DNA of 64,000 nt. It comes from an uncultured Gemmatimonadales bacterium (lineage in GTDB: Bacteria > Gemmatimonadota > Gemmatimonadetes > Gemmatimonadales > Gemmatimonadaceae). The position numbers and the translations under genes were made by a program. The stretch spans positions 896,001 through 960,000 of the forward strand of contig CAWBZV010000005.1 of NCBI GenBank assembly GCA_963793305.1. Direction: 5' to 3'. Positions 15,383 through 32,324 of this stretch are shown in pieces. The first letter of the stretch is position 1; each line of letters begins with the position of its first letter. The notes under the pieces are model-generated. The model ran no database searches and was not told where the DNA came from. It saw only the letters and a program-made list of their open reading frames with translations.

Positions 15383-16038
15383 GGAATCGCCGCCTCCAGC
15401 AAGGCGACGAGCTCCCCCATGCCTTCGCCGGTCTTGGCCGAGACGGCCAATGTCCGCATGCCGGGCCGTACAGCCTGCACGTTGCGTTCGATGGCGTCCC
15501 GGTCGAACTCCACGGCAAGGGCGAGGTCCATCTTCGTGATCACCGCGACGTCGGCGGTATTGAAGATCGTCGGATACTTGAGCGGCTTGTCTTCACCTTC
15601 GGTGACCGACAGGATCACGCAGCGCAGGTGCTCTCCCAGGTCATACGATGCGGGGCACACCAGGTTGCCCACGTTCTCGAGGAACAAGAAGTCGAGCTGG
15701 TCCAACGCCCATCCGTCAAGGGCTTGCTCGACCATCGCCGCATCGAGGTGGCAAATGGTACCCGTGGTGATCTGCCGGACTTGGGCGCCGCTCCGCGCCA
15801 GGCGTGCGGCGTCATTCTCGGTCGCCAGGTCGCCAACGAGCGCTGCCACCCGATATCGCCTGTGCAAGGTCGTCAGGATTCTCTCGAGCAACATCGTCTT
15901 TCCCGAGCCCGGGCTCGATACCAGACTGACGACAAAGACCCCGTTCTCCTGAAAGCGATCTCGCAATGCCCGCGCGAGGATATCGTTGTGCTTGAGGATA
16001 TTCTGCCGCACCTCGACCAGTCGCGGAGCCATGGTCAT
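15379..16038 (-). CDS. hypB: Hydrogenase nickel incorporation GTPase HypB
   Basis: SSPGSGKT, TGTICHLDA, ENVGNLVCPA, SVTEGEDKPLKYP. Confidence 0.97.
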   Translation of the reverse strand: MTMAPRLVEVRQNILKHNDILARALRDRFQENGVFVVSLVSSPGSGKTMLLERILTTLHRRYRVAALVGDLATENDAARLARSGAQVRQITTGTICHLDAAMVEQALDGWALDQLDFLFLENVGNLVCPASYDLGEHLRCVILSVTEGEDKPLKYPTIFNTADVAVITKMDLALAVEFDRDAIERNVQAVRPGMRTLAVSAKTGEGMGELVALLEAAIP

Positions 16039-16277
16039 GACTCGATCTCCAACGCCACGAGCTCCAGCTCCCGGCCGTCGGTATCCTCAATCACGAGACG
16101 TGAACCGGCAATCGGCGTGTCCTGGCATGCGATGTCGAACGAAAACGCCAACGCCTCCTTGGCGACACCAGCCAACTGGCCGATCTTCACATGCACGGCA
16201 CATACGCGCCCGCCCAGGCGCCCGCCTTCCTCCGTGGCGATTTCCACGAGGCTCACGGCTACGGACAATTCGTGCAT
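16035..16277 (-). CDS. hypA: HypA nickel metallochaperone, short form lacking the Zn finger
   Basis: MHELSVA N-terminus and GRELELVALEI C-terminus; 80 aa, no CxxC. Confidence 0.9.
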   Translation of the reverse strand: MHELSVAVSLVEIATEEGGRLGGRVCAVHVKIGQLAGVAKEALAFSFDIACQDTPIAGSRLVIEDTDGRELELVALEIES

Positions 16278-18412
16278 TGCCCAAAGGCCGCGAGCGCGGC
16301 TTGGCCGAGGCTGATCCCGCCATCGTTCGGCGGAACGAGGTGGTTGGTCCACGCGCCCAACTCACCCTGCACAATCATATTTTGTAGGACACCACCCGAC
16401 GCCACCACGGTATCGACGTCGTGTGTGTCACACAGAGTCGCAATCGCGCCGCGCAGCCCACGAACGAACCCGGCGTGGAACGCCCGCGCAATCGCATTGA
16501 CATCGCGCCCACGTCCGCGATCCCTGACAACGCCGGCGAGCAGCGGCCGAAAATCCAGCTCGGCGCCGTCGAACGGAAAATCATACGGCGCGGTGTGACC
16601 TGATCTTCGCGCGCACTGCTCCAGCCAGATCGCCGCTTGCCCTTCGAACGAGATCGGCCGCATCCAGCCGAGGACCGCGGCGACTGTGTCGAATAGCCTT
16701 CCGGTGGAGGTGGTGGTGAACGTTCGTGTTCCGCTCCCGAGCACGGCGAGCGCGTCACGATATCGGTCGGAGTCGAGCTCGACATCGATCTGATGCAAGA
16801 ACCCGGCGGCCGCCTGCACGGGATGCCGCGCCGCCGCATCGCCGCCGACGAGCGCGGCTGGCCTGAGATGCGCGACGCGCTCGAACCCGCGCGCCACACT
16901 GCCGACGAAGATCTCGCCACCCCAGATAGTGCCGTCGTCGCCATACCCCGTGCCGTCGAGCGCCACACCGAGCACACGCCGTTCCCACTCGCCGCGCTCG
17001 GCGAGCACTGAGGCCACGTGTGCGCGATGATGCTGCACTCTCAGTGACACACCGCTCGCGGAGCGGTACTCCGGATGCGCGTCGCCGACGACGAGGGCCT
17101 CGGCGCGGTCCACACGGTACATCCGGAGGAGGTCATCGATCGTCTCGCGAAACGCGCGAAAGGATTGGTAGTCGTCGAGATCCCCAATGTGCTGACTCAC
17201 GAACGCTTGGCCATCGACCACCAGCGTGATCGTATTCTTGAGATCGGCGCCGAGCGCGAGAATCGGCCGGTCGGTCGGAATGGTCGCCACCGCCCCGGGC
17301 GCATACCCGCGACTCCGCCGCAGAATTATCGGCCCGGGACGCACCACGGAATCCTCGATCCGCCGCGCAATCGGCCGCTCGCCGACCAGAAACCCGTCCG
17401 CTATGCCGCTGAGCCGTTCGCGCGCCTCGCGGTCCTGATACGCAATCGGCTCGCTCGACCGATTGCCGCTCGTCATCACGAGCGCCGTCGGCGCGCCTGC
17501 CGCGAACAGCAGGTGATGCACCGGAGAGTACGGCAGCATGATCCCGAGCTCGTCGTTGTCGGGCGCGACACCCGGTAGCTTCACGGTGCCGGGCACGAGC
17601 ACGATGGGTCTGGCGCGACTGGTGAGCAACGCCACGGCCTCGTCGGATAACTCGGCCAGTCCTCTCGCCGCGTCCACGTCCCGCACCATGACCGCGAACG
17701 GCTTCTCCTTTCGGTATTTTCGCTCCCGCAACGCGACGACCGCGGCCGCGTTTCGTGCATCACATGTCAGGTGATACCCGCCAATCCCTTTGACCGCCAG
17801 AATCCATCCTTCCCGCAGCCGTTCGGCGGCGCCTGCAAGGTCATATTGCGGTCCGCACGCGGGGCAGCAAACGGGTTGCGCATGGAATCGCCGATTCGCA
17901 GGGTCATGGTATTCGTTTGCGCACAATGCATCCATCCGCCACATCGCCATCGTCGTGGCCGGGCGATCATACGGCAGCTCGCGCACAATCGAATACCGCG
18001 GTCCACAGTTCGTGCAATTAATGTACGGGTACAAAAACCGCGGATCGCCCGCATCGAACAACTCGCCAAGGCACGCGTCACACGTCGCCAAATCGGGGGA
18101 GATGGGAACGACCGGCGGATCGGGTCGCCGACTCTCCCGAATCTCGAAGTCGCCCAGTCCAGCAACATCGGCCGGTGCAACGTCGATGGCCGCAATCGCG
18201 GCCGCGGGCGGCGCATGCGCGCGCAGCGCGCCGAGAAACGTGTCGAGGTCATCGTGCGACCCTTCGAGGTGAATCTCCACGCCGTCCCCGGCGTTCAGCA
18301 CCCACCCGGCCAACGTGTGCTCATGCGCCAGTCGATAGACATACGGCCGAAAGCCGACCCCCTGCACGATGCCGCGCACGCGCACCGAGCACGCGCTCGT
18401 CACTCCGGTCAT
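16259..18412 (-). CDS. hypF: Carbamoyltransferase HypF
   Basis: VRGIVQGVGFRP, CTNCGPRYS, RFHAQPVCCPACGP, VQHHRAH, DGTGYG, PPNDGGISLGQ. Confidence 0.97.
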   Translation of the reverse strand: MTGVTSACSVRVRGIVQGVGFRPYVYRLAHEHTLAGWVLNAGDGVEIHLEGSHDDLDTFLGALRAHAPPAAAIAAIDVAPADVAGLGDFEIRESRRPDPPVVPISPDLATCDACLGELFDAGDPRFLYPYINCTNCGPRYSIVRELPYDRPATTMAMWRMDALCANEYHDPANRRFHAQPVCCPACGPQYDLAGAAERLREGWILAVKGIGGYHLTCDARNAAAVVALRERKYRKEKPFAVMVRDVDAARGLAELSDEAVALLTSRARPIVLVPGTVKLPGVAPDNDELGIMLPYSPVHHLLFAAGAPTALVMTSGNRSSEPIAYQDREARERLSGIADGFLVGERPIARRIEDSVVRPGPIILRRSRGYAPGAVATIPTDRPILALGADLKNTITLVVDGQAFVSQHIGDLDDYQSFRAFRETIDDLLRMYRVDRAEALVVGDAHPEYRSASGVSLRVQHHRAHVASVLAERGEWERRVLGVALDGTGYGDDGTIWGGEIFVGSVARGFERVAHLRPAALVGGDAAARHPVQAAAGFLHQIDVELDSDRYRDALAVLGSGTRTFTTTSTGRLFDTVAAVLGWMRPISFEGQAAIWLEQCARRSGHTAPYDFPFDGAELDFRPLLAGVVRDRGRGRDVNAIARAFHAGFVRGLRGAIATLCDTHDVDTVVASGGVLQNMIVQGELGAWTNHLVPPNDGGISLGQAALAAFGQCTNCP

Positions 18413-18738
18413 TCGCCGACCACACACCCACGGCCTTGCCAGCCGACTTGCACCACCGTGCCATCCTGCACGAGCACAGGCACAGTCCGCTCGGGGCCGG
18501 CGTACGAGCGCATGCGGTCCCGCGCTTGCGTGTCCGTCTCGACGTCGTACTCGGTAAACGCGACGCGCCGCATCTCCAGCCACTCCCGCATATCGCGCGT
18601 GTAGGGACACGTCGTCGTCCCGAACAGCTCTAGCCGCGCTGCGCTGCGGCTAGAGCTTCGCTTCGAGGCGTCGCTCCGCTCCGCACGAAGCGGGTCGGTT
18701 GGACAGATCTCGGCTGCGCCTCGATCAGGCGTTGGCAC
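18409..18738 (-). CDS. Glutaredoxin-like protein with an in-frame palindromic insert near the N-terminus
   Basis: LELFGTTTCPYT...YDVETD...RTVPVLV...VGWQGRGC; nearest plausible start is GTG 18738 (uncertain). Confidence 0.8.
   Translation of the reverse strand: MPTPDRGAAEICPTDPLRAERSDASKRSSSRSAARLELFGTTTCPYTRDMREWLEMRRVAFTEYDVETDTQARDRMRSYAGPERTVPVLVQDGTVVQVGWQGRGCVVGE
18627..18715 (-). repeat. Hairpin-rich REP-like element, copy A
   Basis: Minus strand reads TCCAACCGACC...GCGGAGCG...GCGAAGC, then the hairpin AGCTCTAGCCGC/GCGGCTAGAGCT; shares TCCAACCGACC with the copy at 62831. Confidence 0.6.
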
Positions 18739-19876
18739 GGATGAGATGGTAGATGGAAGCCTGGACTTCTTGAATCCGCGGGATGTAATCCGACCGCACG
18801 ACGATGCAGTGATCCGCCAACCCACGCCGCCGAATCTCACCGCCGTCGTACCCGAGCAGCGCCACCGTCACGAGCTCACGCTTCCGCGCCTCTTCGAGCG
18901 CGGCGATCACATTGCGCGACCCACCGCTCGTCGAGATCGCAATGGCGATGTCGCCAGGCGCGGCGTGGGCGATGAGTTGTCTTAAGAAAATGACATCGAC
19001 GCCAACGTCATTCGCGATCGCCGTGATGTTCGCCGGCTCCATCGCCAGCGATATCGCGGGCATCGGCACATATCCCTCGGGCGGGGCAACGCAGTCCAAC
19101 GCCCAATCGTTGGCGTCGGTCGCCGAGCCGCCGTTGCCGAAGATGATGAGCTTCGAACCCTGTCTGACACTCTCCCGAATCGCCAGCGTCGCGTCACCGA
19201 TGGCGTCGGCCTCCTCGGCCGCGACCGTCGCGCGCAGCGCGCTGTCGTCAGAAACCTTCGCGATGATGGATCCGGCGACATCCGCCATCGGAACCGACTG
19301 CCCCCGCGCCAGAAACGGATACAGGAACTCGGCCTGCCCAACGTCGTGCCCGAGCTCGCGGTGCTCGAAGAACACGTGCACCGTCTCCCACAACGTGTGA
19401 TACAGGATCTCGATCATCTCCTGATGCATGAACGGATCGTGCGTCACCGCTCGAATCGCGTACGACCCGGCCGAGCCGGGAAGCGCGAACGTCATGGCCC
19501 CTCGCGATCGCGCCACCGCCAGCGCCGCCCACACCGCCGGATCACCCTCCGGCGGCCCGAAACCCATGACGATGTCCTCAGGCCGCAGGATGGCATCGAG
19601 CCACGCCGGAAACTCCGGCGAAATGTCGAGCGCGGGCAACGCTCGCTTGCCGACGATGACGGGATGCACGAACTCGACGGACACGTGCTGCGCGTCAGTC
19701 GCATACGACCCTCGTCCGAACGCGAGCAACCGCCCGCCGCGCAGAAAGCGCTGCGCCATCTCTTCGCACGCCTCCGCCAGCACCACCGCCTCGCGCGCGA
19801 AGAACGCCTCGAACAACTGGTTGCGTTCGAGCAACCCCTGTTCGATCTGCGCACCAAGTCCCAATCGCGTCAACAT
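18725..19876 (-). CDS. Tandem SIS-domain (GmhA-like) protein of the hydrogenase cluster
   Basis: Two SIS repeats: FGRGSYATDAQHVSVEF and FGNGGSATDAND...ISTSGGSRNV...IPRIQE. Confidence 0.9.
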   Translation of the reverse strand: MLTRLGLGAQIEQGLLERNQLFEAFFAREAVVLAEACEEMAQRFLRGGRLLAFGRGSYATDAQHVSVEFVHPVIVGKRALPALDISPEFPAWLDAILRPEDIVMGFGPPEGDPAVWAALAVARSRGAMTFALPGSAGSYAIRAVTHDPFMHQEMIEILYHTLWETVHVFFEHRELGHDVGQAEFLYPFLARGQSVPMADVAGSIIAKVSDDSALRATVAAEEADAIGDATLAIRESVRQGSKLIIFGNGGSATDANDWALDCVAPPEGYVPMPAISLAMEPANITAIANDVGVDVIFLRQLIAHAAPGDIAIAISTSGGSRNVIAALEEARKRELVTVALLGYDGGEIRRRGLADHCIVVRSDYIPRIQEVQASIYHLIRANA

Positions 19877-20883
19877 ATGCGAGGCAGAGGATCCCCGACG
19901 AGCATATCCACGATGCGGCTCCCGCCGTACCCCGTTGTGACGAGCACGGAGCCGGCTGGCTCGCTCTTGATCTCACCAATAAGCGCTGCGCGCTCGCCCA
20001 TTGCCGCCAACGCCATCTCGGCATACTCGGCCGCAACAACCGTCAGGAATTGCCCTTCGTTGGCAATGTGTAGTGGATCGAGACCGAGTAACTCGCAGGC
20101 GCCTCTGACCTCCGCACGGACCGGTATGAGCTCTTCCAGGAGATGAACGCCGAAGCCGCTGTCGAGGGCCAGCTCATTGAGTGTCGTCGCGACCCCGCCC
20201 CGGGTCGGATCGCGCATCCACCGCACACCGGGGCCCGCGGCTCGCATCAACGCTTCCACGAGCGGGAAAACCGATCGCGTGTCCGACTGGAGATCGGCCT
20301 CCAGATCCAGCTCCCCACGCGCGAGCAAGATCGTGATCCCGTGATCCCCGATGGGCCCCGAGACAATGATCTTGTCCCCAGGTTGAACCTGGCGGGGCCC
20401 GAGCACGAGCCCGGGGCGCCGTAGTCCAATCCCTGTCGTCGTGATGTACATCTGGTCGGCCTTGCCGTGCTCGACGACTTTCGTATCGCCACCGACGATC
20501 GCAATCCCGGCGCACGCGGCGGCCTGTGCCATCGCGCGCACTTCGGCCTCGAGGACACTCGTCGGCAATCCCGCCTCGAGCACAAACGATACGACCATCG
20601 CCACCGGCGTGGCGCCAGATACCGCGAGGTCGTTCACGGTACCGTTGACGGCCAACTCTCCAATGGACCCGCCGGGGAACTTGAGCGGCGTGACGACAAA
20701 CGCGTCGGTCGTAATGGCCACTGCCGCTCCGTCGACGTCGACCGTCGCCGCATCGCCGAGCGACTCGTGCGCATCGTAGGCATCGCGCATGAGCAACGGC
20801 GCGATCAGCCCGTCGATGAGGCGCCGGGTCGCCTTGCCGCCGGCGCCATGGGCCATCTCGATCTGCGGCTCGCGAAATTTCAC
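19870..20883 (-). CDS. hypE: Hydrogenase maturation protein HypE
   Basis: HGAGG, NGTVNDLAVSGA, GDTKVVE, RDPTRGG, C-terminal PRIC; GTG start overlaps the hypD stop. Confidence 0.97.
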   Translation of the reverse strand: MKFREPQIEMAHGAGGKATRRLIDGLIAPLLMRDAYDAHESLGDAATVDVDGAAVAITTDAFVVTPLKFPGGSIGELAVNGTVNDLAVSGATPVAMVVSFVLEAGLPTSVLEAEVRAMAQAAACAGIAIVGGDTKVVEHGKADQMYITTTGIGLRRPGLVLGPRQVQPGDKIIVSGPIGDHGITILLARGELDLEADLQSDTRSVFPLVEALMRAAGPGVRWMRDPTRGGVATTLNELALDSGFGVHLLEELIPVRAEVRGACELLGLDPLHIANEGQFLTVVAAEYAEMALAAMGERAALIGEIKSEPAGSVLVTTGYGGSRIVDMLVGDPLPRIC

Positions 20884-22005
20884 ACCGTTGCGGGCTGGCG
20901 CCCCAACGTCTTCCGATGCTCGTAGTTGTAGTACGCTGCGCATGATCCTTCCGAGGAGACCATCAACGCCCCGACCGGCCGCTCGGGCGTGCACTCGCGC
21001 CCGAACAGTTTGCACTGCACAGGCTTGAGCACGCCCTTCAAGACTTCACCGCACTGCGCGGCCTTGGGATCGGTCACCCGCACCCCCGCGATGTCGAATC
21101 GGCGCTCGGCATCCCACTGCGCGTAGCTCTCCTTGATCCGCAGGGCAGACTGCGAGATGAACCCGAGCCCGCGCCACTCGAAGAACGGCCGCAGCTCGAA
21201 CACCTCGGCCATCGCCGAGAGCGCGGCCCGGTTGCCTTCCCAGGGAACGACGCGCTTGTATTGGTTCTCGACGATCGAGGTACGCCGTTTGATCTGCCGC
21301 AGCAACATGACGATCGATTGCAGCATGTCGAGTGGCTCGAACCCGGAGACGACGATCGGCCGCTTCTCGTCCCGCGCGATCCACTCATACGGCCGGCATC
21401 CAATCACGGTCGACACGTGCCCGGGACCGATAAACGCGTCCAGTCGCATATCGGGTGAATCCAATATCGCCCGAATAGCGGGGATGATGGTGACGTGGTT
21501 ACAGAACACCGAAAAATTCTTGATGCCCTCGGCTTTCGCCCGCATGAGCGTCAACGCGGTCGATGGCGCCGTCGTCTCGAACCCGATGGCGAAGAACATG
21601 ACGTGCCGGTCGGGATTGGTTCTGGCCAGCTTGAGGGCGTCCGATGGCGAGTACACGATGCGCACATCCATGCCCCGCGCCTTGTGCTCCAAGGGGCTGC
21701 CGTGCGCACCCGGCACGCGCATCATGTCGCCGAACGCCGCGAAGATGACCTCGGGCTGCCTGCCGAGCGCGAGCCCGTCATCGATCCGCCCCATCGGAAG
21801 CACGCACACGGGGCATCCCGGCCCGTGAATCAACTCGAATGTTCTCAGGCAGGACATCCTTGAGCCCGAACCGATAGATCGCGTGCGTATGGCCACCGCA
21901 CACCTCCATGAACCGATACCGACGCCCGGGGTCGGTCAGCCACCGGATCTCCTCGGCGACCGTGTTGATCACCTCGGGATCGCGAAACTCATCGACGAAT
22001 CTCAT
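20880..22005 (-). CDS. hypD: Hydrogenase formation protein HypD (+1 frameshift near 21839, probably an assembly error)
   Basis: MEVCGGHTHAI in one frame; HGPGCPVCV, GFETTAP, GPGHVS, GALMVSSEGSCAAYY in the next. Confidence 0.95.
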
Positions 22006-22277
22006 GAGGACTCCAGCCCGTAGCCGCGGACCTCTTCCATCGCCGCCAGGTCTTCGCCGAGGATTCTTAACGTTCGCATCTGCTCGGCCGCGTCCTGCTC
22101 GCTGATCTTGCTCATCGCGAAACCGACGTGAATGAGGACCCAGTCGCCAGGAACTGGATGCTCATCGACGAGCAGCCCGAGATCCACGCGCCGGCGCACC
22201 CCATTGACGTCAACGAGCGCGAGCGTCGCGTAATCGGCGACCATCTCGACGATCTTACCGGGAATCGCTAGGCACAT
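22002..22277 (-). CDS. hypC: HypC/HupF chaperone
   Basis: MCLAIPGKIVE...GDWVLIHVGFAM. Confidence 0.97.
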   Translation of the reverse strand: MCLAIPGKIVEMVADYATLALVDVNGVRRRVDLGLLVDEHPVPGDWVLIHVGFAMSKISEQDAAEQMRTLRILGEDLAAMEEVRGYGLESS

Positions 22278-22409
22278 TTGGCGACAATGTGGAATGTACA
22301 CCTGAACTCATCGAGCCTGAGCGTCGTTTGATCGGCGACCATCTCGACGATACTATCGGGAATCGCTAGACACATTGGCGACAATGTCGAATGTACACTT
22401 GAGCTCATC
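22233..22409. repeat. Diverged direct duplication (about 80 bp, period about 98 bp) of the yceI-end/hypC-start junction
   Basis: atcggcgaccatctcgacgat...gggaatcgctag...ggcgacaatgt...aatgtacac...ctcatc at 22233-22312 and at 22331-22409. Confidence 0.9.
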
Positions 22410-22916
22410 CTTTGCCTTGACCGCCCCACCTGCGGCGCTCACGAGCTTGATTCCGTAGTCAGTCTGTCTGACACTGAACTCACCATACGCCCGCAGTGTC
22501 GCAGGACTGACAATCGTACGCGCATTCACAGGCTGCCGGCGCGAAGCGCCGTGCAGCGTGAGATTGCCCGAAAGGGCAACATCGAATTGCCCATCGCCGG
22601 TGCGCTTCGTGGTGGTAACGGAGGTCGGCGAATCGTACGAGATAGTCTGGTATTTCGATATCTCGAGCACTTGATCCCGCATGATGCTCTCGATCTCCTC
22701 CCGATCGCGACTGCTGACGTCGTCGATGAGCTCCAACGAAGCCCCGGTGATCGAGAGCGCCAACGACGCGTCGGCGCCCGATTCCGGATCGATGTTAACC
22801 TCGCCCTCGTACTGCCGGACCGCAAATGTCGGATTGTGCGCCAGCGCCGACAACATGCCGGCCGCAAACGCCTTGATCGTGAATTTGCTCACGCCAACCT
22901 CGATCCTATACCTCAC
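22353..22916 (-). CDS. YceI-family (polyisoprenoid-binding) protein, no signal peptide
   Basis: VLEISKYQTISY, GNLTLHG, GEFSVRQTDYGIK, VKAKDELKCTFDI. Confidence 0.88.
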   Translation of the reverse strand: MRYRIEVGVSKFTIKAFAAGMLSALAHNPTFAVRQYEGEVNIDPESGADASLALSITGASLELIDDVSSRDREEIESIMRDQVLEISKYQTISYDSPTSVTTTKRTGDGQFDVALSGNLTLHGASRRQPVNARTIVSPATLRAYGEFSVRQTDYGIKLVSAAGGAVKAKDELKCTFDIVANVSSDSR

Positions 22917-23113
22917 ATAGCTCTGAGCTTCAGATATCGGGCCACATCGGGCACGGCGTTCTGGATCAGGTCGACTGGCCGTATCTGCCCCAGCAATTGC
23001 CGAACGTTCCGGTTCGACAAGATCAAGCCGGCGCCGAGGACCGCCAGCGCCACTCCGCCGAACAGGAGCATAGTATCCCGATCGGCCGCGTCGTCATTCT
23101 CGACTGCTCTCAT
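22913..23113 (-). CDS. Small membrane protein with PDxxRYLxxRxM C-terminus (DUF6893-like)
   Basis: One TM segment, ends VPDVARYLKLRAM; RBS GGGGGAG. Confidence 0.8.
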   Translation of the reverse strand: MRAVENDDAADRDTMLLFGGVALAVLGAGLILSNRNVRQLLGQIRPVDLIQNAVPDVARYLKLRAM

Positions 23114-23853
23114 CGCTCCCCCCATTCAAGAATTTCGCGATCAGCAACTCCACGACGGTCGCGGCCTGCACGACAGCGGCCTCTACTTCGGGACTCAGCC
23201 CCATCTGCCCTTCCGGCGGCCCCAGTGTGACCGGCTCACACCCGACGATCAGTACGTTCTTCAACGTCGCGCCTTGCGCCCTCGACAGCCGCAACACGTG
23301 CAGGGGATTCATGTCGTGCGCATCGAATGTCGCCGGGTCGCTCTCGTGCTCGATGTCGGGCTCGATGACAAAGAATGTCGCCCGGAGTCTTCCCCCACGG
23401 ACACGCGTCGACGAGGATGACGTGGTCGTACTCATCCATGAGGGCAAACGCGAGATCGTACCCTCGTATGCCAAAATCGACGACGTTCACACCAGCGGGG
23501 AACTCGCGGCAACCGAAATGCCTGACGACCTCGACCCCGAACCCGTCGTCGCCCATGAAGATGTTGCCGATCCCGGCTACGAGAACCCGTGGCGGCGAGG
23601 GTTCCGGCGGCTCGGCCGCCGCCTCTATGAACTCCAACTCGGCCGGCGCAAAGAAGAACCGATGCGCGGGCGCGCGCGGCCCGAGGGCTCGGCCCGGGTC
23701 GTCGTCGAGCACGACCACGACGTGCTCCTGCCCGCCGTAATCCCGCTCGACGGACGCCACTCGCGCCAACTGACCCGCCAGCGCGAGATCGAAAATGTCG
23801 CCCCGCACTTTGGGCTGAAGCCGCACGCGATCCCCGGGCTGCAGCGTGGTCAT
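23094..23853 (-). CDS. Hydrogenase maturation endopeptidase with extra N-terminal domain (+1 frameshift near 23380)
   Basis: VAGIGNIFMGDDGFGVEV, DFGIRGYDLA; after the shift DAHDMNP, IVGCEP, GLSPEV. Confidence 0.9.
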
Positions 23854-24608
23854 ACGGGTCTCATCGTCCCATGCAGCTTCATGAGCTGCTCGGCCGCGAG
23901 GGATTGCGTGCGCTCCAACAGCGCGCGACCCTTCTCGTCGGACGCGCGTATCTCGCGCTGCTCATCGTCGGTCAGCGTCAGGATCCGGAGCGACAGGATC
24001 TCATCGATCTCCGTGCTATCGTAGAGATCCCCGGGACTCTCGTCCGCGATCTCCGGATAGTCGTACACAATGATAGGAGACGACAGCATGATCTGATGCT
24101 GTCCGCGCGGACCCGCCAGTACGGGCCACGTCCGAAGGTTCCGGCACTCGCCCGCCGTCGCCCGATAGATCTCCGGCGGGTCGATCATCGAGACGAACTC
24201 TCCGTTCGACACGCCGAGAATCGTGTGCGTCGCCGCCATCGAGTGCCCGGACTCGGGCGTGTTGACGATTCGGGCGCGGAGTCTCAACGTGCGGTCGGCA
24301 TACCGGAGCGTGGACACCTCGACCACGCCACTCAACGAGGCCCAAGCGAACGGCGTCGAGCCCATCGCGCTGGTGGTCACCTCGCGCTCGACCGGATCGG
24401 GCGTGAGCTCGATGAACCGCACGCGCACATCGAACGTCGTCGCCGCATCGCCCATGACGAGACACTCGGTCTGCATGTACTCGCCGGGCGCGATGACGCC
24501 GAAGTTGAACGGCTGGCGATTCTTGAGCGCCGATGGGCGGTACGGGTAGAGCAGGTACCCTTCGTAGAGCAACACATTGGCGACTTTGTCGACGTCGGTG
24601 ATGGTCAT
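23850..24608 (-). CDS. Conserved group 1h hydrogenase accessory protein (HhaC-like)
   Basis: LLYEGYLLYPYRPSALKN, LSSPIIVYDYPEIADESPGDLYDSTEIDEILSLRILTLTD. Confidence 0.85.
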   Translation of the reverse strand: MTITDVDKVANVLLYEGYLLYPYRPSALKNRQPFNFGVIAPGEYMQTECLVMGDAATTFDVRVRFIELTPDPVEREVTTSAMGSTPFAWASLSGVVEVSTLRYADRTLRLRARIVNTPESGHSMAATHTILGVSNGEFVSMIDPPEIYRATAGECRNLRTWPVLAGPRGQHQIMLSSPIIVYDYPEIADESPGDLYDSTEIDEILSLRILTLTDDEQREIRASDEKGRALLERTQSLAAEQLMKLHGTMRPV

Positions 24609-25234
24609 ACGCGCGTCACCTCCTCCATCACTTGCTCCCAGGTGGGAATGCCGCGAGCGATCTTGAACCGGTAGAGCCGCTCGAAGATGTCCCGCCGGAG
24701 CGCCAACCAGGCGAGGTTCGGATAGTACTGATCCATGAGATTCTTCCATACCTTCACCGGGAGCCGGAACTTCGCCTCGCGGTCCCAGGGGATCGGCGCG
24801 ACCTGCAGCGCCCCGGACGCATCCTGATAGAACACGCTGCCGCTGAACTGAAACGTGAGCGGCACCTCGCCATCGGCGAGCGCATAGAAATACTTGGTCG
24901 CCGCGACGTTGAAGTCGAACGTGCACGGCACGGGCATCTCGACCGTGGTCTCGCGAGTGAACGACGGCACGATCACACCCACGTGCGTCCACAGCAGGCT
25001 CTTGAGCGTCGTGCCCCAGCGATCCCGCTCGCCGAAGAGGTCCCGGAGCTTCGCCGCTTCCTCGCTATCGTACTGGCGGCGCACGACGTCGAGCTGGATC
25101 TGGCACCTCAGGACCACGGTGTGGACCGCCTCGTCGGATGGCTGGTTCGTCACCCGCAGCGCGAATCCCAACATCGGTACGAGAGCAAAGGGCGTCACCG
25201 ACGCGCTCTCAACGGCGAACGATAGATCAGGCAC
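24605..25234 (-). CDS. DUF6084 group 1h accessory protein (HhaB-like)
   Basis: LRCQIQL, LFGERDRWG, PCTFDFNVAATKYF, IPWDREA. Confidence 0.88.
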   Translation of the reverse strand: MPDLSFAVESASVTPFALVPMLGFALRVTNQPSDEAVHTVVLRCQIQLDVVRRQYDSEEAAKLRDLFGERDRWGTTLKSLLWTHVGVIVPSFTRETTVEMPVPCTFDFNVAATKYFYALADGEVPLTFQFSGSVFYQDASGALQVAPIPWDREAKFRLPVKVWKNLMDQYYPNLAWLALRRDIFERLYRFKIARGIPTWEQVMEEVTRV

Positions 25235-25788
25235 GACGCCTCAGCTCGTTGAAGAAGTCCGCGATCGCCACCCACACCTGCGTTCCCCCCGAGAGCCCCT
25301 TCCACTGTGTTCGAATCAACCCCACCAGCCGGTAGCACTGGTCGATCGGCGCCACGAAATACTCCGGCACGGCGCGATTGACGAGCAGGGCTTCGAACGT
25401 CAGGCGCCAGCCCTATGTCCTCCCACGTGTCGAGGTCTAGCGCGGACTCCGTTGCCCCAGCCGGGCTCGGATAATACGCCACCACACGCTTATGCGGCGT
25501 GGAATGGACGAAGAACGCCAGGTTGATCGGAATCCCGAGCGCGTCCCATTGCGCGTTGCTCATCTGAAAGTCGCTCAAGAGTCGCACGCGCCGAGGCACG
25601 CGCTTGCGCGTTGTCGTCCGCTCGAACAACACGGCGCAGGCGCCACACGCGCAGATGAGCCGTCGCTCGCCCACCTCGAGCAGATGCTCGTGGTCGCTGT
25701 GCAAATCGGTCCCACACAACTCACACCGCTCGGTCGCCCGCGAGCGGGCATTGAACTGGCGCAGGCGATTGAACGCGGTCGCGCCCAC
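25227..25788 (-). CDS. DUF5947 group 1h accessory protein (HhaA-like; +1 frameshift near 25397)
   Basis: ERCELCG...HEHL...CACGAC, YPSPAGATES; after the shift EALLVNR...PIDQCYRLVGLIR...WKGLSGG. Confidence 0.88.
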
Positions 25789-26234
25789 TAGCGCCTGCGC
25801 TCCAGCATCACCAGCGGCTCTTGGCGCTCCACGACGATCGAGTCGACCTCGGGGGCGGCCTCTCGAAGCGCCTCTTCAATGGTTCGGACGAGCGACGTCG
25901 GGCCGTCGACGCGCACGTGCGCCGATGAGTCATCGACGCGTAAGATCTCGACCTTTCCCTCGTGTGTCCGCAATGCCTCTCGGACCCGCTTGGTGGCGTC
26001 CCACGGATGCAGGTCATGCAACAACAGCAGCGTGCGCACTTTCGGATCCCGCGCGAATCGCTCCAGCAGCGCCTCGCCGGGCGCGCCACTCGCGCGCGTC
26101 AGGTCGAGGAGACGCCCGAGTCCAGCGGCATGGAGCTCCATCACGGCCTGCAACAACTCCTTTGACATGGCTTTCGAGGCCGGGTCACTCCCGGCCTCGA
26201 GTTGCTCCACCAGCTCGGCGATGCGCTCGATCAA
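25788..26234 (-). CDS. NifU-like protein of the hydrogenase cluster, lacking CxxC
   Basis: LLQAVMELHAAGL...LLLLHDLHP...IEEALREAAPEV; TTG start overlaps the hhyL stop (start uncertain). Confidence 0.8.
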   Translation of the reverse strand: MIERIAELVEQLEAGSDPASKAMSKELLQAVMELHAAGLGRLLDLTRASGAPGEALLERFARDPKVRTLLLLHDLHPWDATKRVREALRTHEGKVEILRVDDSSAHVRVDGPTSLVRTIEEALREAAPEVDSIVVERQEPLVMLERRR

Positions 26235-28024
26235 GGTTGTATCCCGAACATCGGCGTGTGATGCGTCTCGAGCGTCTTGCCGTTGCCGAGGTACATGTGG
26301 ACGCCGCACGGCAGACAGGGATCGAAGCTCCGCACGGCGCGCATGATGTCGATGCCCTTGAACGAGTCCGGCCCGTTCTCCTCGAAGATCGGCGTGTTCT
26401 GCACGGCATCTTCGTACGGTCCGGGCGTCCCATAGACATCGCGCACGCTGCCGTTCCACGGCGTCGGCGGATACGGGTGGTAGTTGGCGATCTTGCCTTC
26501 GCGGATCACGACGTGATGCGACAGCACGCCCCGGACGGCCTCGTGGAATCCGCAGGCGATGGCCTCGTCGGGCACCTTGAACTCGCTCCACGTCCTGGTG
26601 CGCCCCGCATGGAGCTCGGCCAGCGCCTTATCCACGAAGTAGTACGCGCAGGCGCACGCATACGCCTGGAAGTACGTGCGCGCGCGGTCACGCTCGAGCG
26701 CGTTGCTCCACTTTGGGATCTTCCACTCGAACTCGGTCTCCGGCAGCGTGGCGGTCTTCGGCAGATAGATCTTGACACTCTTGCCGGTCGCTTTCACGTA
26801 CCCAATGTCAACGATGCCGGCCAACGCCGTGGCCCAGAATCTGGCGATCGGCCCGCCACCGGTATCGAGCGCCAGATAATCTTTGCCGTCGAACCACCGC
26901 GGCGACATGGTCCAGCTGTACTTGTCATCGAAGTCGCGCTTCTGCGGACGGGGTATCGTCGTCTGGTTCCATGGGTGCCGCTGATCAACGGGGTTCCCAA
27001 GCGGGTCTTGCCGCACGAAGGTCTCACTATTCTGCCAATCGTCGTAGAACGAATGCCCCAGCAGAATCCTGATCCCCAGATTGATATCAACCAAATCATG
27101 CGTCACCAACTTCCCATCGACAACGACGCCAGGCGTGACATACATAGCGTCGCCCCACGTCGACATCTTCTTATACGTGTAGTCACACGCATCGGGATTA
27201 TTGAACGACCCCCAGCAGCCGAGCAACGTCCGCCGATACCCAACCTTCTCGTATCCCGGTAGCGCCTCATAGAAGAAGTCGAACAGATCATCATGCAACG
27301 GCACGACCTTCTTCATGAACTCGGCGTATCTCGCCAGCCGGACGAGATAGTCGGTAAAGAGCTGGATGGTAGGCACGGTCCCAACGCCGCCAGGATACAG
27401 CGTCGACGGATGCACATGCCGTCCTTCCATGAGACAGAACATCTCACGGGTATATCGACTGACCTGTAGCGTCTCGAGATAGAACGACCCGGTGAAGGGA
27501 TTCAGCGCGGTCATGATGTCCGCGATGGTCCGAAATCCGTGCTGCTCGGCGTGAGGGGATTGGGTCTTCTTGGCCTTCTCCCAAACGCCAGGATTCGTGG
27601 CGCGCACCATCTGCTCGCAGAAGTCGACGCCGACCAGGTTATCCTGGAAGATGTTGTGATCGAACATGTACTCGGCCGCTTCGCCGAGGTTGACGATCCA
27701 CTCACCGAGCGCGGGCGGCTTGACGCCAAAGGCCATGTTCTGCGCATACATGGCGCAGGTCGCGTGATTATCGCCGCAGATCCCGCAGATGCGACTCGTA
27801 ATGAAGTGCGAGTCGCGCGGGTCTTTGCCTTTCATGAAAATGGAATAGCCGCGGAAGATCGACGATGTGCTATGGCACTCCGCGACTTCTCTGTTCTCGA
27901 AGTCGATCTTGGTGAAGATGCCGAGGCTCCCGACAATGCGCGTGATGGGATCCCAGTTCATCTCCACGAGTTTGCGCGATTTCCCCTCGCTGCCAGCGCG
28001 CCCCGTGGGGGCAACAGTTGTCAT
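26231..28024 (-). CDS. hhyL: Group 1h [NiFe]-hydrogenase large subunit
   Basis: WDPITRIVGSLGI, L1 motif SRICGICGDNH, L2 motif RSFDPCLPCGVH followed by a C-terminal extension. Confidence 0.96.
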   Translation of the reverse strand: MTTVAPTGRAGSEGKSRKLVEMNWDPITRIVGSLGIFTKIDFENREVAECHSTSSIFRGYSIFMKGKDPRDSHFITSRICGICGDNHATCAMYAQNMAFGVKPPALGEWIVNLGEAAEYMFDHNIFQDNLVGVDFCEQMVRATNPGVWEKAKKTQSPHAEQHGFRTIADIMTALNPFTGSFYLETLQVSRYTREMFCLMEGRHVHPSTLYPGGVGTVPTIQLFTDYLVRLARYAEFMKKVVPLHDDLFDFFYEALPGYEKVGYRRTLLGCWGSFNNPDACDYTYKKMSTWGDAMYVTPGVVVDGKLVTHDLVDINLGIRILLGHSFYDDWQNSETFVRQDPLGNPVDQRHPWNQTTIPRPQKRDFDDKYSWTMSPRWFDGKDYLALDTGGGPIARFWATALAGIVDIGYVKATGKSVKIYLPKTATLPETEFEWKIPKWSNALERDRARTYFQAYACACAYYFVDKALAELHAGRTRTWSEFKVPDEAIACGFHEAVRGVLSHHVVIREGKIANYHPYPPTPWNGSVRDVYGTPGPYEDAVQNTPIFEENGPDSFKGIDIMRAVRSFDPCLPCGVHMYLGNGKTLETHHTPMFGIQP

Positions 28025-28031
28025 ATTGTCC

Positions 28032-29093
28032 TCAAGCCCTGGGGTGATATCCCGTGGTCAACTCTCCCCGCGGGTGGCGCCACTTCGGTTCTTTATTGAG
28101 GGTCGTATTCGTAAAGGATCTCAGCGCTCGAATCGTGCGCCCGTAGATGCTGATGCTCGCGGCGGAGACTTTCGCGCCCGGCGGCTCATCCATGAACGGC
28201 ATGAACTTGTCGGGGAACCCGGGCATGGTGCATCCGATGCAGATGCCGCCGACGTTCGGGCACCCGCCGATGCCCGCCATCCATCCCCGCTTCGGCACGT
28301 TGCAGTTCACGACCGGCCCCCAGCATCCGAGCTTGACGATGCACTTGGGCGAGCCGTACTCGGTCGCGAAATCGCCTTGCTCGTAGTATCCGGCGCGATC
28401 ACATCCCTCATGCACCGTCTTCCCGAACAACCACGTCGGTCGTAACTGATCGTCAAGCGGAATCATTGGCGCGAGACCGGCAACCTGATACAGGAGATAG
28501 AGCACGGTCTCCATGAAGTTGTCAGGCTGCACCGGACACCCGGGCACATTGACAATCGGGACACCCGCTTTCGACCGCCAATCCCATCCGAGATAATCCG
28601 CGAGTCCCATGCACCCGGTCGGGTTGCCGGACATTGCATGGATGCCACCGTACGTGGCGCACGTCCCGATCGCGACAACTGCGAGGGCCTTTGGCGCGAG
28701 CCGATCGATCCATTCCGTGGTCTTGATCGGCTGCCCGGTTTTGGTGTCAGTGCCGAGCGCGGCCCAGTACCCATCGGGCCCGTGGATCTTCTCGTTCGGG
28801 ACTGAGCCCTCAACGACGAGCACGAACGGATCGAGCTTCCCTTGCTCGGCTTGATACCAGAACTTCATGAAATCCGAGCCGTTCTCAACCGCGAGAACGG
28901 GGTTGTGCAAATGGACCTTGGGCAAACCGGGAATAGCGCCGAGCAACACGTCTTCGATGCTCGGCTGTGTCGCCGCGGTAATCGAGACCGTATCGCCATC
29001 GCACCCCAGGCCGGCGGTCATCCAGACGATGTGGATCTCGGGAACCGGCGACGGCCGCTGCGTCTTGCGACCATAAGGCACGGTGTCGGGCAT
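28032..29093 (-). CDS. hhyS: Group 1h [NiFe]-hydrogenase small subunit
   Basis: AGLGCDGD, GTCATYGG, PGCP, HEGCDRAGYY, CIVKLGCWGP, GGCPNVGGICIGC; no Tat signal; RBS GAGGGG. Confidence 0.96.
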   Translation of the reverse strand: MPDTVPYGRKTQRPSPVPEIHIVWMTAGLGCDGDTVSITAATQPSIEDVLLGAIPGLPKVHLHNPVLAVENGSDFMKFWYQAEQGKLDPFVLVVEGSVPNEKIHGPDGYWAALGTDTKTGQPIKTTEWIDRLAPKALAVVAIGTCATYGGIHAMSGNPTGCMGLADYLGWDWRSKAGVPIVNVPGCPVQPDNFMETVLYLLYQVAGLAPMIPLDDQLRPTWLFGKTVHEGCDRAGYYEQGDFATEYGSPKCIVKLGCWGPVVNCNVPKRGWMAGIGGCPNVGGICIGCTMPGFPDKFMPFMDEPPGAKVSAASISIYGRTIRALRSFTNTTLNKEPKWRHPRGELTTGYHPRA

Positions 29094-29151
29094 AGCCCCT
29101 CGATGCGCGTTGTGGTGGCTTTGAGATACCGACACGAGCCGGCCGCAACAA

Positions 29152-29190
29152 GCGGGGACATCCCGCGATGTCCTAGGGGAATCCCTTAGG
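29152..29190. promoter_or_regulatory. Tandem palindromes upstream of hhyS (candidate response-regulator sites)
   Basis: GCGGGGACATCCCGC (29152-29166) and CCTAGGGGAATCCCTTAGG (29172-29190); centres 22 bp apart. Confidence 0.6.
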
Positions 29191-29202
29191 TCGAACCGCT
29201 AC

Positions 29203-29877
29203 TCAATCACTGCTCAGCCGCCACTCGATCGCGCGCTGCATCAACGCGCGCGCGCTCGGGAGCGACAGCTTGTCCTTGATGTGCGCTTGATACGATTCGA
29301 CGGTCTTGATGCTCAAATGCAGTTGCTCGGCGATCTCGCGCGTCCCGTGGCCGTCGCCGATGAGCCTGAACACTTCGAGCTCGCGGTCGCTGAGCGTCGA
29401 GACGAGGCTCTGCGGCGAGTTGCCTTGTTTCGAGACGAGCTGTTGCAGCATCGTGTTCGCGATGCGATCGCTGACGTACACCTCGTGGCGCAAAATGCGG
29501 CGGATCGCCACGAGCACCCGCTCGGTGGCTTCCTGCTTCATGATGTAGCCGTTCGCGCCCGCCCGCAGGGCTCGCTCGGCGTAGAGCGACTCGTCGTGCA
29601 TCGACAGGACGAGAATGGGCAGGTTGGTATCGGTCGCCCGAATGCTCTTCAGTAGGTCGAGTCCGTCGGGCCCATTGAGCGAGATGTCGAGTACCAAGAC
29701 GTCGGGATTGAGCGCGGCAAGCGCGGCGGGGACCGGCCAGGCTGCCTCAGCCTCGCCGCAGACTATGAGATCCGGCTCCTGATTGATGAGCAGCGTCAGG
29801 CCCTGTCGGACGATCGGGTGATCGTCGACGAGAAAGACGCGGTACCGATCGGTCACGCGCGCAGCGGGAATCGACAC
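29203..29877 (-). CDS. NarL/LuxR-family response regulator
   Basis: LVDDHPIVRQGL, LDISL, GYIMKQE, LSDRELEVF...LSIKTVESY HTH; exact start uncertain. Confidence 0.95.
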   Translation of the reverse strand: MSIPAARVTDRYRVFLVDDHPIVRQGLTLLINQEPDLIVCGEAEAAWPVPAALAALNPDVLVLDISLNGPDGLDLLKSIRATDTNLPILVLSMHDESLYAERALRAGANGYIMKQEATERVLVAIRRILRHEVYVSDRIANTMLQQLVSKQGNSPQSLVSTLSDRELEVFRLIGDGHGTREIAEQLHLSIKTVESYQAHIKDKLSLPSARALMQRAIEWRLSSD

Positions 29878-31256
29878 GAGACCACCGTCCCGCGCTCCGG
29901 CCCGCGCCGCACTTCGACTGATCCGCCGACCAAATTCGCGCGATATCGCATGATGTGGAGCCCCAGTCCGCTTCGGCTCGGCAATGTGTCGGGCAATCCC
30001 ACCCCATCATCCTCGATAGTGATATTGCCCTCTTCCGCCGATCGCCGCAACGAGACGCATACGCGCGTCGGCCTGGCGTGGCGGATGGCATTGTTCACGG
30101 CCTCCTGCACGATGTGATACACCTGCGTTGCCACCCTCACATCGGGCACCTCGATAGGCTCATTGCACCGTATTTCACAAGGGATGCGAAAGAGGTCCTC
30201 GACCTCTCCGGCCCACCGCTTGAGCGCGGCGAGCAGACCCTCCGCGTCCGACAACACCGGCAGCAGGCCCCGGGACAGCTCGCGAGTCTTATTGATGGCC
30301 TCGTTGACGAGCCGGACGATCTTGGCTGCATCCGCCGGCTCGGCCATCTGCCCGTCGGCGAGCTTCTGCTCCAGGACCTTCGACATGAAGGCAATGCCCG
30401 TGAGATGCTGACCGAGGCCGTCGTGCAGATCCTGTGCGATCTGTCGCTGCACCGTGGTGCTGACATTGAGGATGGCCTCTTCCATCCGCTTGCGCTCCGT
30501 GATGTCGATGCCGGTCGCGATCACCGAGCCGGGGGAAAGCGTCGTGCACGACCAGGCAATGCGCCGCTGGCCTCCATCCGCATCGGTCAGCCAGCTCTCG
30601 AACTCGCTGCGAGCGACAGTCTGGGGAGGAATCGAGAACAACTCGCCGAACGATCGTCCGTTGGCCGTGCGCCCCAGCAACCGCTCGCACGCGCGGTTGG
30701 ACCGGATGATCTGCCCGGAGGGGTCCAGGACGACGATCAGCGCGCCGACAGTGTCGAGGATCCCGGACACGACGTTGCGCTCCTCTTGCAGCGCTTCCTC
30801 CGTGCGCTTGAGCTCCGTGATATCGAACGCGACTCCGTGGATGAACCACGGACGCCCGTCGTCACGCCGCACCATCTTGGCTTCGCAGTGGAACCACACC
30901 ATGTGGCCATCGCGCGCGATGACGCGATACGCCGATCGCAACGGCCGTCCCGTCAGGAACATCTCGGCCGCTTCGATGCTCCAGCGTGAGCGATCGTCCG
31001 GGTGCACCTGGTTGTACCAGCGCACGGGGTCCTCGAGCCATTCCGCTTGTGTGAATCCGAGCACTTCTTCGATCCGCGGACTCACATATGCTTCACCGAT
31101 GCCGCGGTCGAGGTAGGCCATGAAGACGACGGCTTGGACCTGCTCGACCAGCGTCCGGTACCGGGCCTCGAGCGTGTGCTCTTCCATCTGGCCCGGCGGT
31201 CCGACAAAGACCGACGCGAGCCCTACGAGCGTGGCCTCCGCTTCTATTTGATTCAC
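29853..31256 (-). CDS. Soluble PAS-PAS sensor histidine kinase (HisKA_3 type)
   Basis: YVSPRIEEVLGF...VHPDDR PAS, IAQDLHDGLGQHL, QEAVNNAIRHA, DDGVG, GLGL; no TM segment; GTG overlaps the upstream stop. Confidence 0.93.
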   Translation of the reverse strand: MNQIEAEATLVGLASVFVGPPGQMEEHTLEARYRTLVEQVQAVVFMAYLDRGIGEAYVSPRIEEVLGFTQAEWLEDPVRWYNQVHPDDRSRWSIEAAEMFLTGRPLRSAYRVIARDGHMVWFHCEAKMVRRDDGRPWFIHGVAFDITELKRTEEALQEERNVVSGILDTVGALIVVLDPSGQIIRSNRACERLLGRTANGRSFGELFSIPPQTVARSEFESWLTDADGGQRRIAWSCTTLSPGSVIATGIDITERKRMEEAILNVSTTVQRQIAQDLHDGLGQHLTGIAFMSKVLEQKLADGQMAEPADAAKIVRLVNEAINKTRELSRGLLPVLSDAEGLLAALKRWAGEVEDLFRIPCEIRCNEPIEVPDVRVATQVYHIVQEAVNNAIRHARPTRVCVSLRRSAEEGNITIEDDGVGLPDTLPSRSGLGLHIMRYRANLVGGSVEVRRGPERGTVVSCRFPLRA

Positions 31257-32215
31257 GTGCGCCGCTTGTTGAGGGAGGCCTGGGTAAACCGCCGCAGCGC
31301 GTGAATGGCCTTACCGTATGTCATGACCGCGGCCGTCGAGAGCAGGGAACCGGGCGGCTGATTCATGAAGGGTTGAAACTTGTCCGGAAATCCAGGCATA
31401 GTGCACCCGATGCAAATGCCGCCCACGTTGGGACAACCGCCGATCCCACTCATCCATCCCCGCTTCCCGACGTTGCACTGCACAACCGGTCCCCAGCAGC
31501 CGAGCTTCACAATGCAGGTCTTCGCTCCGTACGTATCGGCGAACTCACCTTGCTCGTAATATCCTCCACGATCGCACCCTTCGTGCACGGTGCTCTCGAA
31601 GAGCCAACGCGGCCTCAGCGACTCATCGAGCGAAATCATCGGCGCGCGTCCCGCCGCCATGTGCAATAAATAGAGCAGCGTCTCCATCATATTATCGGGT
31701 TGCACGGGGCAACCTGGGACGCATACGATCGGAATCTGCGCCTGGGACCGCCATTCCCAGCCCAGGTAGTCGGGCAAGCCCATGCAACCGGTCGGGTTGC
31801 CTTGCATGGCGTGAATGCCGCCGTACGCCGAGCATGTGCCCGCGGCGACGACGGCCCAGGCATTCGGCGCCAGGCGATCGATCCACGTGCACGTCTTGAT
31901 CGGTTCCTTCGTGGTTGGGTCAGTGCCGAACGATGCCCAGTAGCCTTCGCCGGCGAGCGATTCATCCGGAATCGAGCCTTCGACGACCAGGATGAAGGGG
32001 CCGAGTTTTCCTTCGGCCCCACGCCTGAAGATGTCGACGAACTCGTCACCGTTCTCGATCGATAGGAACGGGTTATGCAACGTCACCTTCGGAATCCACG
32101 GAATCGCGCCGCGCACAACATCTTCGATACTGGGCTGCGTCGCGGCGGTCATCGCAATCGTATCGCCGTCGCAGCTCAAGCCGGCGGTGAGCCAGAGAAT
32201 CGAGATCTCATTCAT
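31253..32215 (-). CDS. Second (orphan) group 1h hydrogenase small-subunit paralog
   Basis: AGLSCDGD, GTCSAYGG, PGCP, HEGCDRGGYY, CIVKLGCWGP, GGCPNVGGICIGC; shorter N- and C-termini than hhyS. Confidence 0.94.
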   Translation of the reverse strand: MNEISILWLTAGLSCDGDTIAMTAATQPSIEDVVRGAIPWIPKVTLHNPFLSIENGDEFVDIFRRGAEGKLGPFILVVEGSIPDESLAGEGYWASFGTDPTTKEPIKTCTWIDRLAPNAWAVVAAGTCSAYGGIHAMQGNPTGCMGLPDYLGWEWRSQAQIPIVCVPGCPVQPDNMMETLLYLLHMAAGRAPMISLDESLRPRWLFESTVHEGCDRGGYYEQGEFADTYGAKTCIVKLGCWGPVVQCNVGKRGWMSGIGGCPNVGGICIGCTMPGFPDKFQPFMNQPPGSLLSTAAVMTYGKAIHALRRFTQASLNKRRT

Positions 32216-32324
32216 GTCACACGCGCGCTCGTGGGCCTGGTTGGCGGTGATCGGCATCGTCGGTTACGTCGTCGCTCGCGCGTTGCCCGACGTTGCTCGT
32301 TATCTACGCATACGCCGTATGTAG
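32214..32324 (+). CDS. 36-aa membrane peptide, DUF6893-like paralog
   Basis: MSHARSWAWLAVIGIVGYVVARALPDVARYLRIRRM; same C-terminal motif as 22913-23113. Confidence 0.7.
   Translation: MSHARSWAWLAVIGIVGYVVARALPDVARYLRIRRM

Follow-up and report, generated by a model that had tools for sequence, protein, structure and literature searches.

A kinase-linked paralog of the group 1h hydrogenase small subunit and its probable regulatory role upstream of hhySL in a Gemmatimonadales bacterium

Introduction

Why should a bacterium whose genome encodes a single group 1h hydrogenase large subunit carry two genes for the small subunit, the second of them joined to a histidine kinase? The question is raised by a stretch of 64,000 nucleotides (the window; positions count from its first letter) from an uncultured Gemmatimonadales bacterium (assembly GCA_963793305.1, contig CAWBZV010000005.1, positions 896,001 to 960,000), whose minus strand encodes, in this order, a small-subunit paralog (SSU2), the kinase, a NarL-type response regulator, and the hydrogenase subunits HhyS and HhyL. 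The enzyme lets soil bacteria live on H2 from air; how H2 uptake from the atmosphere is sensed is still to be understood according to the accessible part of PMC13098282, and that of PMC5900883 makes no mention of a two-component system or sensor. Because SSU2, kinase and regulator form one gene block with a probable regulator site just before hhyS, their most likely role, judging from sequence comparison, is that of a regulatory cassette, or switch, for the hhy operon.

An extra hhyS is already in print. The accessible passages of PMC8027828 describe an additional hhyS, or hhyS homolog, placed ~3,600 bp ahead of the structural genes in Acidobacteriaceae KBS 83 and Edaphobacter aggregans, as in Pyrinomonas methylaliphatogenes. 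From start to start, SSU2 and hhyS lie ~3,120 bp apart in the window, and the distance in the Acidobacteriota that we sampled is about 3.6-3.75 kb; by position and description, SSU2 and the published homolog are very probably one gene family. On the homolog's function, phylogeny, kinase partner or operator the same passages are silent, and a functional study of an extra hhyS was not found in the literature searched, where subscription papers were mostly out of reach. New here are the candidate operator, the helix-PAS1 input to the kinase and the case in Gemmatimonadota.

Results

SSU2 is 68% identical to the neighbouring HhyS and carries all of the iron-sulphur (FeS) ligands, namely C15, D18, C128 and C169; C247, C261, C268 and C271; and H211, C214, C234 and C240. 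These are invariant or nearly so across 83 paralogs, and binding of three [4Fe-4S] clusters is predicted, the assignment of the ligand sets to individual clusters being our assumption. A tblastn search of the source genome (5.72 Mb, 92% complete) found a single group 1h large subunit and, on contig C10, just one further large subunit, which is 25% identical and is paired with a small subunit of its own (L-, G- and C-numbers denote loci, genomes and contigs of the source genome, G000). A GTGA overlap joins the stop codon of SSU2, for which an alternative in-frame upstream ATG lies at 32257, to the GTG of the kinase. The regulator probably starts at 29856 rather than at its end-coordinate of 29877, since a second GTGA overlap then forms the kinase-regulator junction. 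Pfam recognises PAS_3, PAS, HisKA_3 and HATPase_c in the kinase and Response_reg and GerE in the regulator, and the marks of a NarL/LuxR two-component pair are all present: HisKA_3 and HATPase_c with His278, and a receiver domain with Asp64 followed by the GerE helix-turn-helix.

None of the features of a catalytic HhyS (a place directly before hhyL, the N-terminal arm, the TTGY tail) is seen in SSU2. The PYG[RK]-type arm is absent from all 76 paralogs scored and present in 64 of 67 HhyS; the TTGY tail occurs in 2/83 paralogs versus 75/79 HhyS. Further paralogs in the Acidobacteriota genome sample and on metagenome contigs retain the tail, so its loss does not define the clade, and the C-terminal end at NKRRT/A without EPxWR is peculiar to the window lineage (the window, L042, P0007 and P0008). 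The preliminary description of this locus had pictured a second small subunit with FeS ligands but no large subunit of its own, overlapping a soluble PAS-PAS HisKA_3 kinase that in turn overlaps a NarL/LuxR regulator. That picture stands, the second overlap being a GTGA like the first if the regulator starts at 29856; the missing arm, also described there, proved general among the paralogs, while the missing tail is common without being diagnostic.

The gene order is not peculiar to the window. A scan with the C-terminal signature returned at least 598 stretches, of which the best 80 loci (4 from Gemmatimonadota, the rest from Acidobacteriota) were taken as the linkage set; at least 592 pattern matches lie in genome contigs, some of which may be HhyS. 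In all of the best 80 loci the start of a helix-PAS1 kinase lies directly 3' of the paralog, and in none is there a large subunit within 1 kb. Six of these loci end too early to be followed further. In 52 of the 74 readable ones the kinase is followed by a close ortholog of the regulator and then hhyS, in 14 by a distant NarL-type regulator and then hhyS, and in one by hhyS without a regulator; seven have no hhySL nearby.

Paralog and PAS1 also occur together when searched for separately. Two samples of 401 genomes, each including its centre genome, were drawn from Acidobacteriota (the phylum of G404) and from the window's own phylum; related genomes in them are not independent, and the PAS searches scored nine candidates per genome. 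The Acidobacteriota sample gave 25 genomes matching at E 1e-80, 19 of them group 1h-like and 11 of these with the paralog, and the helix-PAS1 search returned exactly the same 11. In the own-phylum sample, 13 genomes have a group 1h small subunit and five the paralog; PAS1 was found in the same five and in G119, whose contig ends at the kinase. Genome G743 retains both although paralog and kinase lie on different contigs. Catalytic small- or large-subunit genes are present in all 11 and all five paralog genomes, and no paralog was found in the 382 (Acidobacteriota) and 388 (own-phylum) sampled genomes without group 1h genes. At lower identity the tie is not absolute, since a PAS1-like domain is encoded in L226 and L238 and the 7 kb upstream of it contains no small subunit. 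L241, where hhyL comes immediately after the cassette, and L204, with remnants of a mosaic kind, have the look of deletion mosaics and are not counted as evidence; L241 is still a row in the 86-row small-subunit and 41-row large-subunit trees below. No conclusion depends on G433, a single low-identity match in the Acidobacteriota sample. In RNA runs small shares were present as contigs, mostly from relatives, which do not bear on expression.

The region upstream of the window's hhyS contains the palindrome CTAAGGGATTCCCCTAG at 29173-29189. A matrix built from the close-regulator loci yields ATCGGGGAATCCCCGAT, and the summary consensus is ATCGGGGAWTCCCCGAT. When 67 hhyS upstream regions were scored leaving one out, with a score of ≥12 counted as positive, 49 of the 51 close-regulator loci had the palindrome (L100 and L106 being the misses), versus 0 of 14 with the distant one. 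Of two loci without an adjacent regulator, L068 is negative and L091 positive, its regulator lying 2.7 kb further upstream. The score of the window site is 17.0; shuffled sequences reach 3.9 at most. Out of sample, the palindrome appeared in four of 31 unused loci, all with the regulator in the genome: in cis in L157, L158 and L125, and for L124, from G404, with the cassette on another contig. No regulator was found elsewhere in the two genomes that were checked behind the 27 negative loci. The palindrome at the target promoter is therefore probably the operator of the NarL-type regulator, as far as comparison can tell. Autoregulation found no support, the palindrome lying upstream of the paralog in 1/80 loci and being absent from that place in the window; a scan for sigma-70 promoters gave hits at chance level (1 vs 0.9). 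In the source genome as a whole 22 sites score ≥13, among which the window site ranks fifth.

Two further observations concern these sites. On C10 (67000-136000) and C23 there are eleven boxes like GTCAGGGAWTCCCTGAC, near universal stress and BON-like genes (named by eye) and a NarL-type regulator at C10:94080-94742, probably a DosR-like hypoxia regulon. Genome G405 (L099, L159, L160) has two paralog cassettes and two hhySL operons, of which only the one with the regulator was scored, and it is palindrome-positive.

The best 120 homologs of SSU2 are 79-97% identical to it, versus 68% for its own HhyS, and have a common C-terminal signature; the closest locus among the matches listed is L042 (Gemmatimonadaceae), at 97% identity. 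In a FastTree phylogeny of 169 rows, 83 paralogs make up one side of a 99% branch. As the labels in that tree rested on best identity, rows were relabelled by gene context, and in a second tree of 86 hand-picked rows (a quick IQ-TREE run, LG+G4) all 53 kinase-linked small subunits fell in a single clade with 98% SH-aLRT support. SSU2 nests among the group 1h small subunits in both trees, grouping with other Gemmatimonadota paralogs amid Acidobacteriota rows. The ratio of nonsynonymous to synonymous substitution rates (dN/dS) is 0.035-0.087 across seven paralog pairs and 0.023 in one HhyS pair; SSU2 is under purifying selection. A separate hydrogenase group from the own-phylum sample, with small subunits at 47-50% identity (L014-L019, L026), was used as outgroup, and no conclusion depends on G157, one outgroup row in the 169-row tree and one low-identity match.

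Where might SSU2 and the kinase meet? Thirteen paralog-specific fixed residues fall within aa 281-320, against at most three in any other 20-residue block; outside this segment the core is largely common with HhyS. The closest solved structure is HofK (PDB 5AA5; E 1.5e-156 over aa 2-317). An AlphaFold model of SSU2 alone was poor over aa 199-320 (mean pLDDT 63.9) and was not used, and a complex prediction of SSU2, three 4Fe-4S clusters and kinase aa 1-161 scored 0.00 with controls that did not fold, and was given no weight. On the kinase side, the constant part is the N-terminal helix (AExxLxxLAxVF) with PAS1. The output cores behind it differ among the 16 kinases scanned (HisKA_3, HisKA-REC or GAF-PAS-HisKA, with 0, 1 or 2 extra PAS domains), and PAS2 is dispensable, being absent in L044, L055 and L058. 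Kinase aa 3-17 are modelled as a helix, in which A6, L10, L13, A14 and F17 are invariant in 71 rows selected for the motif. PAS1 has one invariant cysteine (C124, alignment A7) and no LOV motif, its fold matches are generic (16-26% identity), and it resembles neither of the cofactor-binding types considered, LOV and NreB-type FeS PAS, by the motifs that we take to mark them. A plasmid match to PAS1 (38%, Ca. Manganitrophus) was rejected as a generic PAS with no hydrogenase nearby, and a helix-PAS1 profile search, dominated by multi-PAS proteins without gene context, was set aside.

A metagenome scan with a divergent PAS1 alignment sheds light on the origin of the cassette. Its best 80 of 516 matches include five complete small-large-kinase triplets and five large-kinase pairs cut by contig ends. 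The triplet small subunits fall in the kinase-linked clade, and in a 41-row tree a clade of eight with 97% support unites six large subunits encoded beside a kinase with two from related contexts, their L1/L2 motifs being intact. In one kinase of this set PAS1 is 52% identical, with little likeness beyond it. Since there are kinase-linked relatives whose own large subunit is still intact, the cassette probably goes back to a full group 1h sensory pair, of which the present lineage would have lost the large partner; support at the base of the clade is poor, and we infer this order of events with corresponding caution. The early proposal that the sensor had been assembled independently from an orphan subunit should thereby probably give way to one of loss. 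Two of its other expectations were borne out: the kinase-linked paralogs are a separate, old clade spanning phyla with conserved kinase linkage, not recent duplicates, and the palindrome before hhyS ties the regulator to that promoter by comparison.

Discussion

With these findings in mind, one may propose how the cassette works. The reading that we prefer, and to which we give an even chance, is that of a three-gene switch descended from a complete kinase-linked group 1h hydrogenase, in which SSU2 borrows HhyL and signals the H2 or redox state to the kinase. SSU2, with three [4Fe-4S] clusters, would pair with mature HhyL into a minor sensory heterodimer (the hydrogenase AH is a dimer of heterodimers in the accessible part of PMC5902676). 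Probably through its clade-specific C-terminal helix (aa 281-320), SSU2 would then dock on the kinase helix and PAS1, and the reduction state of the FeS wire, set by H2 oxidation versus electron demand, would determine kinase activity. His278 would phosphorylate Asp64 of the regulator, by standard chemistry for which the sites are present. Lastly, with strong comparative support, a regulator dimer would bind the palindrome and control hhySL-hyp transcription, with either sign. Somewhat short of an even chance, in our judgement, is a broader proposition in which the cassette represents a separate sensory group 1h lineage, independent of group 2b and with a portable helix-PAS1 adaptor, the shedding of the large subunit is placed in Acidobacteriota and Gemmatimonadota, and the lone small subunit captures HhyL near atmospheric H2 and sets its own operon via the operator.

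Several observations weigh against the preferred reading. The module is not required, because 8 of the 19 group 1h genomes in the Acidobacteriota sample are without it. The window SSU2 lacks the EPxWR stretch that most paralogs retain. Most of the 14 motif-negative loci come from Blastocatellia, so that the palindrome test cannot tell an effect of lineage from one of regulator type, and cross-talk is possible because 11 of the 22 high-scoring sites in the source genome lie on C10/C23 near another NarL-type regulator. According to the accessible passages of PMC8027828, the transcript of the homolog was detected in Acidobacteriaceae KBS 83 and not in E. aggregans, and hhyL rose about 125-fold and 3.5-fold in stationary phase (carbon-starved). 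Finally, among 10 genomes hand-picked because hhySL was not seen beside the paralog, eight have HhyL elsewhere and G409 is a draft with hypD, but G402 (L072), a single-contig chromosome of 5.2 Mb, has an intact paralog and a hybrid kinase with no HhyL, HhyS, HypD or PF00374 match over the cut-off. Borrowing is impossible in G402, as there is no HhyL there.

It is because the paralog looks constrained in G402 (dN/dS 0.065-0.067 in two pairs), where hydrogenase genes were not found, that one alternative stays alive, unlikely though we consider it: SSU2, without any large subunit, may be a stand-alone FeS/thiol redox or O2 sensor acting on helix-PAS1, which switches hhySL on under energy or reductant stress. 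Its sensing site would be C109 and C165 together with the exposed Asp/3Cys proximal cluster, and its circuit is, we assume, NreA/NreB-like in logic. The starvation induction of hhyL and the lack of a nearby large subunit throughout the linkage set agree with such a sensor, as does the occurrence of C109 in 77/83 and C165 in 82/83 paralogs, versus 4/79 HhyS each. The two cysteines, however, are also found in four and five, respectively, of the six paralogs that retain a large subunit, and the paralog was not found in sampled genomes without group 1h genes. G402 itself is one case in 10 hand-picked genomes, and its pairwise dN/dS is compatible with recent loss of the operon.

A second alternative, which we regard as improbable, takes SSU2 for another catalytic small subunit with a different electron outlet, which has nothing in common with the two-component system but the transcript. 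The identity to HhyS, the retention of all ligands, and two loci (L167, L174) in which a clade member heads a full accessory operon would fit. Co-transcription alone, however, leaves unexplained why paralog and PAS1 co-occur despite swapped kinase cores and even when unlinked, as in G743; moreover, G450 and G466 (L150, L149) have another coiled-coil-PAS-PAS-HisKA_3 kinase and a NarL regulator before hhyS, and no paralog in the genome. Still more improbable is that the SSU2-HhyL complex reports hydrogenase maturation or nickel status instead of H2, only matured HhyL being able to bind and the complex feeding back on the kinase. Neither the invariance of all medial and distal cluster ligands nor G402 would be explained in this way, although kinases with PAS1 often lie beside hypB, hypF or protease genes in metagenome contigs, and a C-terminal peptide is supposed to keep the subunits from assembling before the NiFe site has been filled (PMC8229454, accessible part). 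That SSU2 is a recent duplicate or a decaying relic carried along with the operon, as the undetected transcript in E. aggregans and the truncated C-terminus and squeezed promoter region of the window lineage might suggest, is effectively refuted by the single clade across phyla, dN/dS below 0.09 and the abundance of pattern matches in genome contigs, even if some of these are HhyS.

If the preferred reading, a switch with borrowed HhyL, is true, it would mean that gas sensors can be built in a new manner, from a shared subunit. A close known parallel is the group 2b system HoxBC-HoxJ-HoxA of Cupriavidus necator, where a hydrogenase small subunit is likewise linked to a soluble histidine kinase controlling hydrogenase genes (PMC10073562, PMC8229454 and PMC5037454, in their accessible passages). 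The window differs in that its subunits are group 1h, no dedicated large subunit is encoded at the locus, HhyL has a C-terminal extension, the output is of HisKA_3 and NarL/GerE type, and a long HoxB-like C-terminal extension is missing. HoxA is an NtrC-type regulator, and we presume HupUV-HupT-HupR to be a comparable group 2b system. Kinase linkage is thus found in all of the best loci, but 2b subunits and an NtrC-type regulator are not, and the cassette would appear to work like a group 2b system while falling outside that group. HofK, the small subunit of C. necator AH, has the same ligand pattern as SSU2, but also the N-terminal arm and the TTGY tail; it is encoded beside its large subunit, with no kinase in the 9 kb locus. 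DosR is itself NarL-type. The DosST/DosR two-component system of Mycobacterium smegmatis also acts on a group 1h operon (PMC13098282, accessible passages), but is a global O2/redox system without a hydrogenase-derived input subunit, whereas the window cassette is local. The cassette offers a concrete, testable circuit in harmless strains that are in culture, made up of a single input protein, docking domain and regulator together with a 17-bp site, and metagenome counts of hhyS include a non-catalytic clade.

Genomic neighbourhood

The coordinates of the cassette and the surrounding features are collected in Table 1.

Table 1. Features of the cassette, the hhy operon and their surroundings in the window
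Feature	Position	Strand	Remarks
SSU2 (kinase-linked group 1h small-subunit paralog)	31253..32215	-	320 aa; ligand sets for three [4Fe-4S] clusters kept (binding predicted); C109 and C165
Soluble histidine kinase	29853..31256	-	N-terminal helix, PAS1, PAS2, HisKA_3 (His278), HATPase_c
Kinase N-terminal helix, candidate docking element	31206..31250	-	aa 3-17, motif AExxLxxLAxVF
Kinase PAS1 domain	30777..31175	-	aa 28-160; kinase part co-occurring with SSU2
NarL/LuxR-type response regulator	29203..29877	-	Response_reg and GerE, 224 aa, Asp64
17-bp palindrome, candidate operator	29173..29189	.	CTAAGGGATTCCCCTAG (minus strand); consensus ATCGGGGA(A/T)TCCCCGAT
hhyS, catalytic small subunit	28032..29135	-	N-terminal arm, TTGY tail; probable start ATG 29093
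hhyL, group 1h large subunit	26231..28024	-	L1 RICGICGDN and L2 DPCLPCGVH intact
Accessory/maturation block downstream	14624..26591	-	named by eye and after similar, annotated loci on plasmids
Divergent DUF6893 small gene	32214..32324	+	Pfam E 4.8e-08; ATG shared with SSU2 ATG (CATG)

The accessory block comprises genes for a NifU-like protein, DUF5947, DUF6084, a protease, DUF6893, YceI, hypCDE, SIS, a glutaredoxin, hypF, hypAB and a nickel transporter, several of its open reading frames being apparently frameshifted. At C10:76000-92000 (L041) the source genome encodes another [NiFe]-hydrogenase, whose small subunit is of the twin-arginine kind and whose neighbours are cytochrome-like.

The divergent DUF6893 gene shows dN 0 and dS 0.30 against L042. 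At least seven other loci have a divergent gene of this kind 250-400 bp ahead of the paralog, a spacer that is gone in the window and L042, and a second DUF6893-like gene lies at about 22919-23080 on the minus strand. Upstream of the cassette, at about 32365-32520, there is an inverted-repeat element (ATGGTTCTGAGTGGCGCTTCGCGC and its complement), REP/MITE-like by eye, which differs between the window and L042; just past it, on the minus strand, is a short coiled-coil-like open reading frame. Further on (33126-40500) lie genes for an ECF sigma factor, a Ser/Thr kinase, a sigma-54 activator and TPR proteins, named by eye and apparently unrelated to the cassette.

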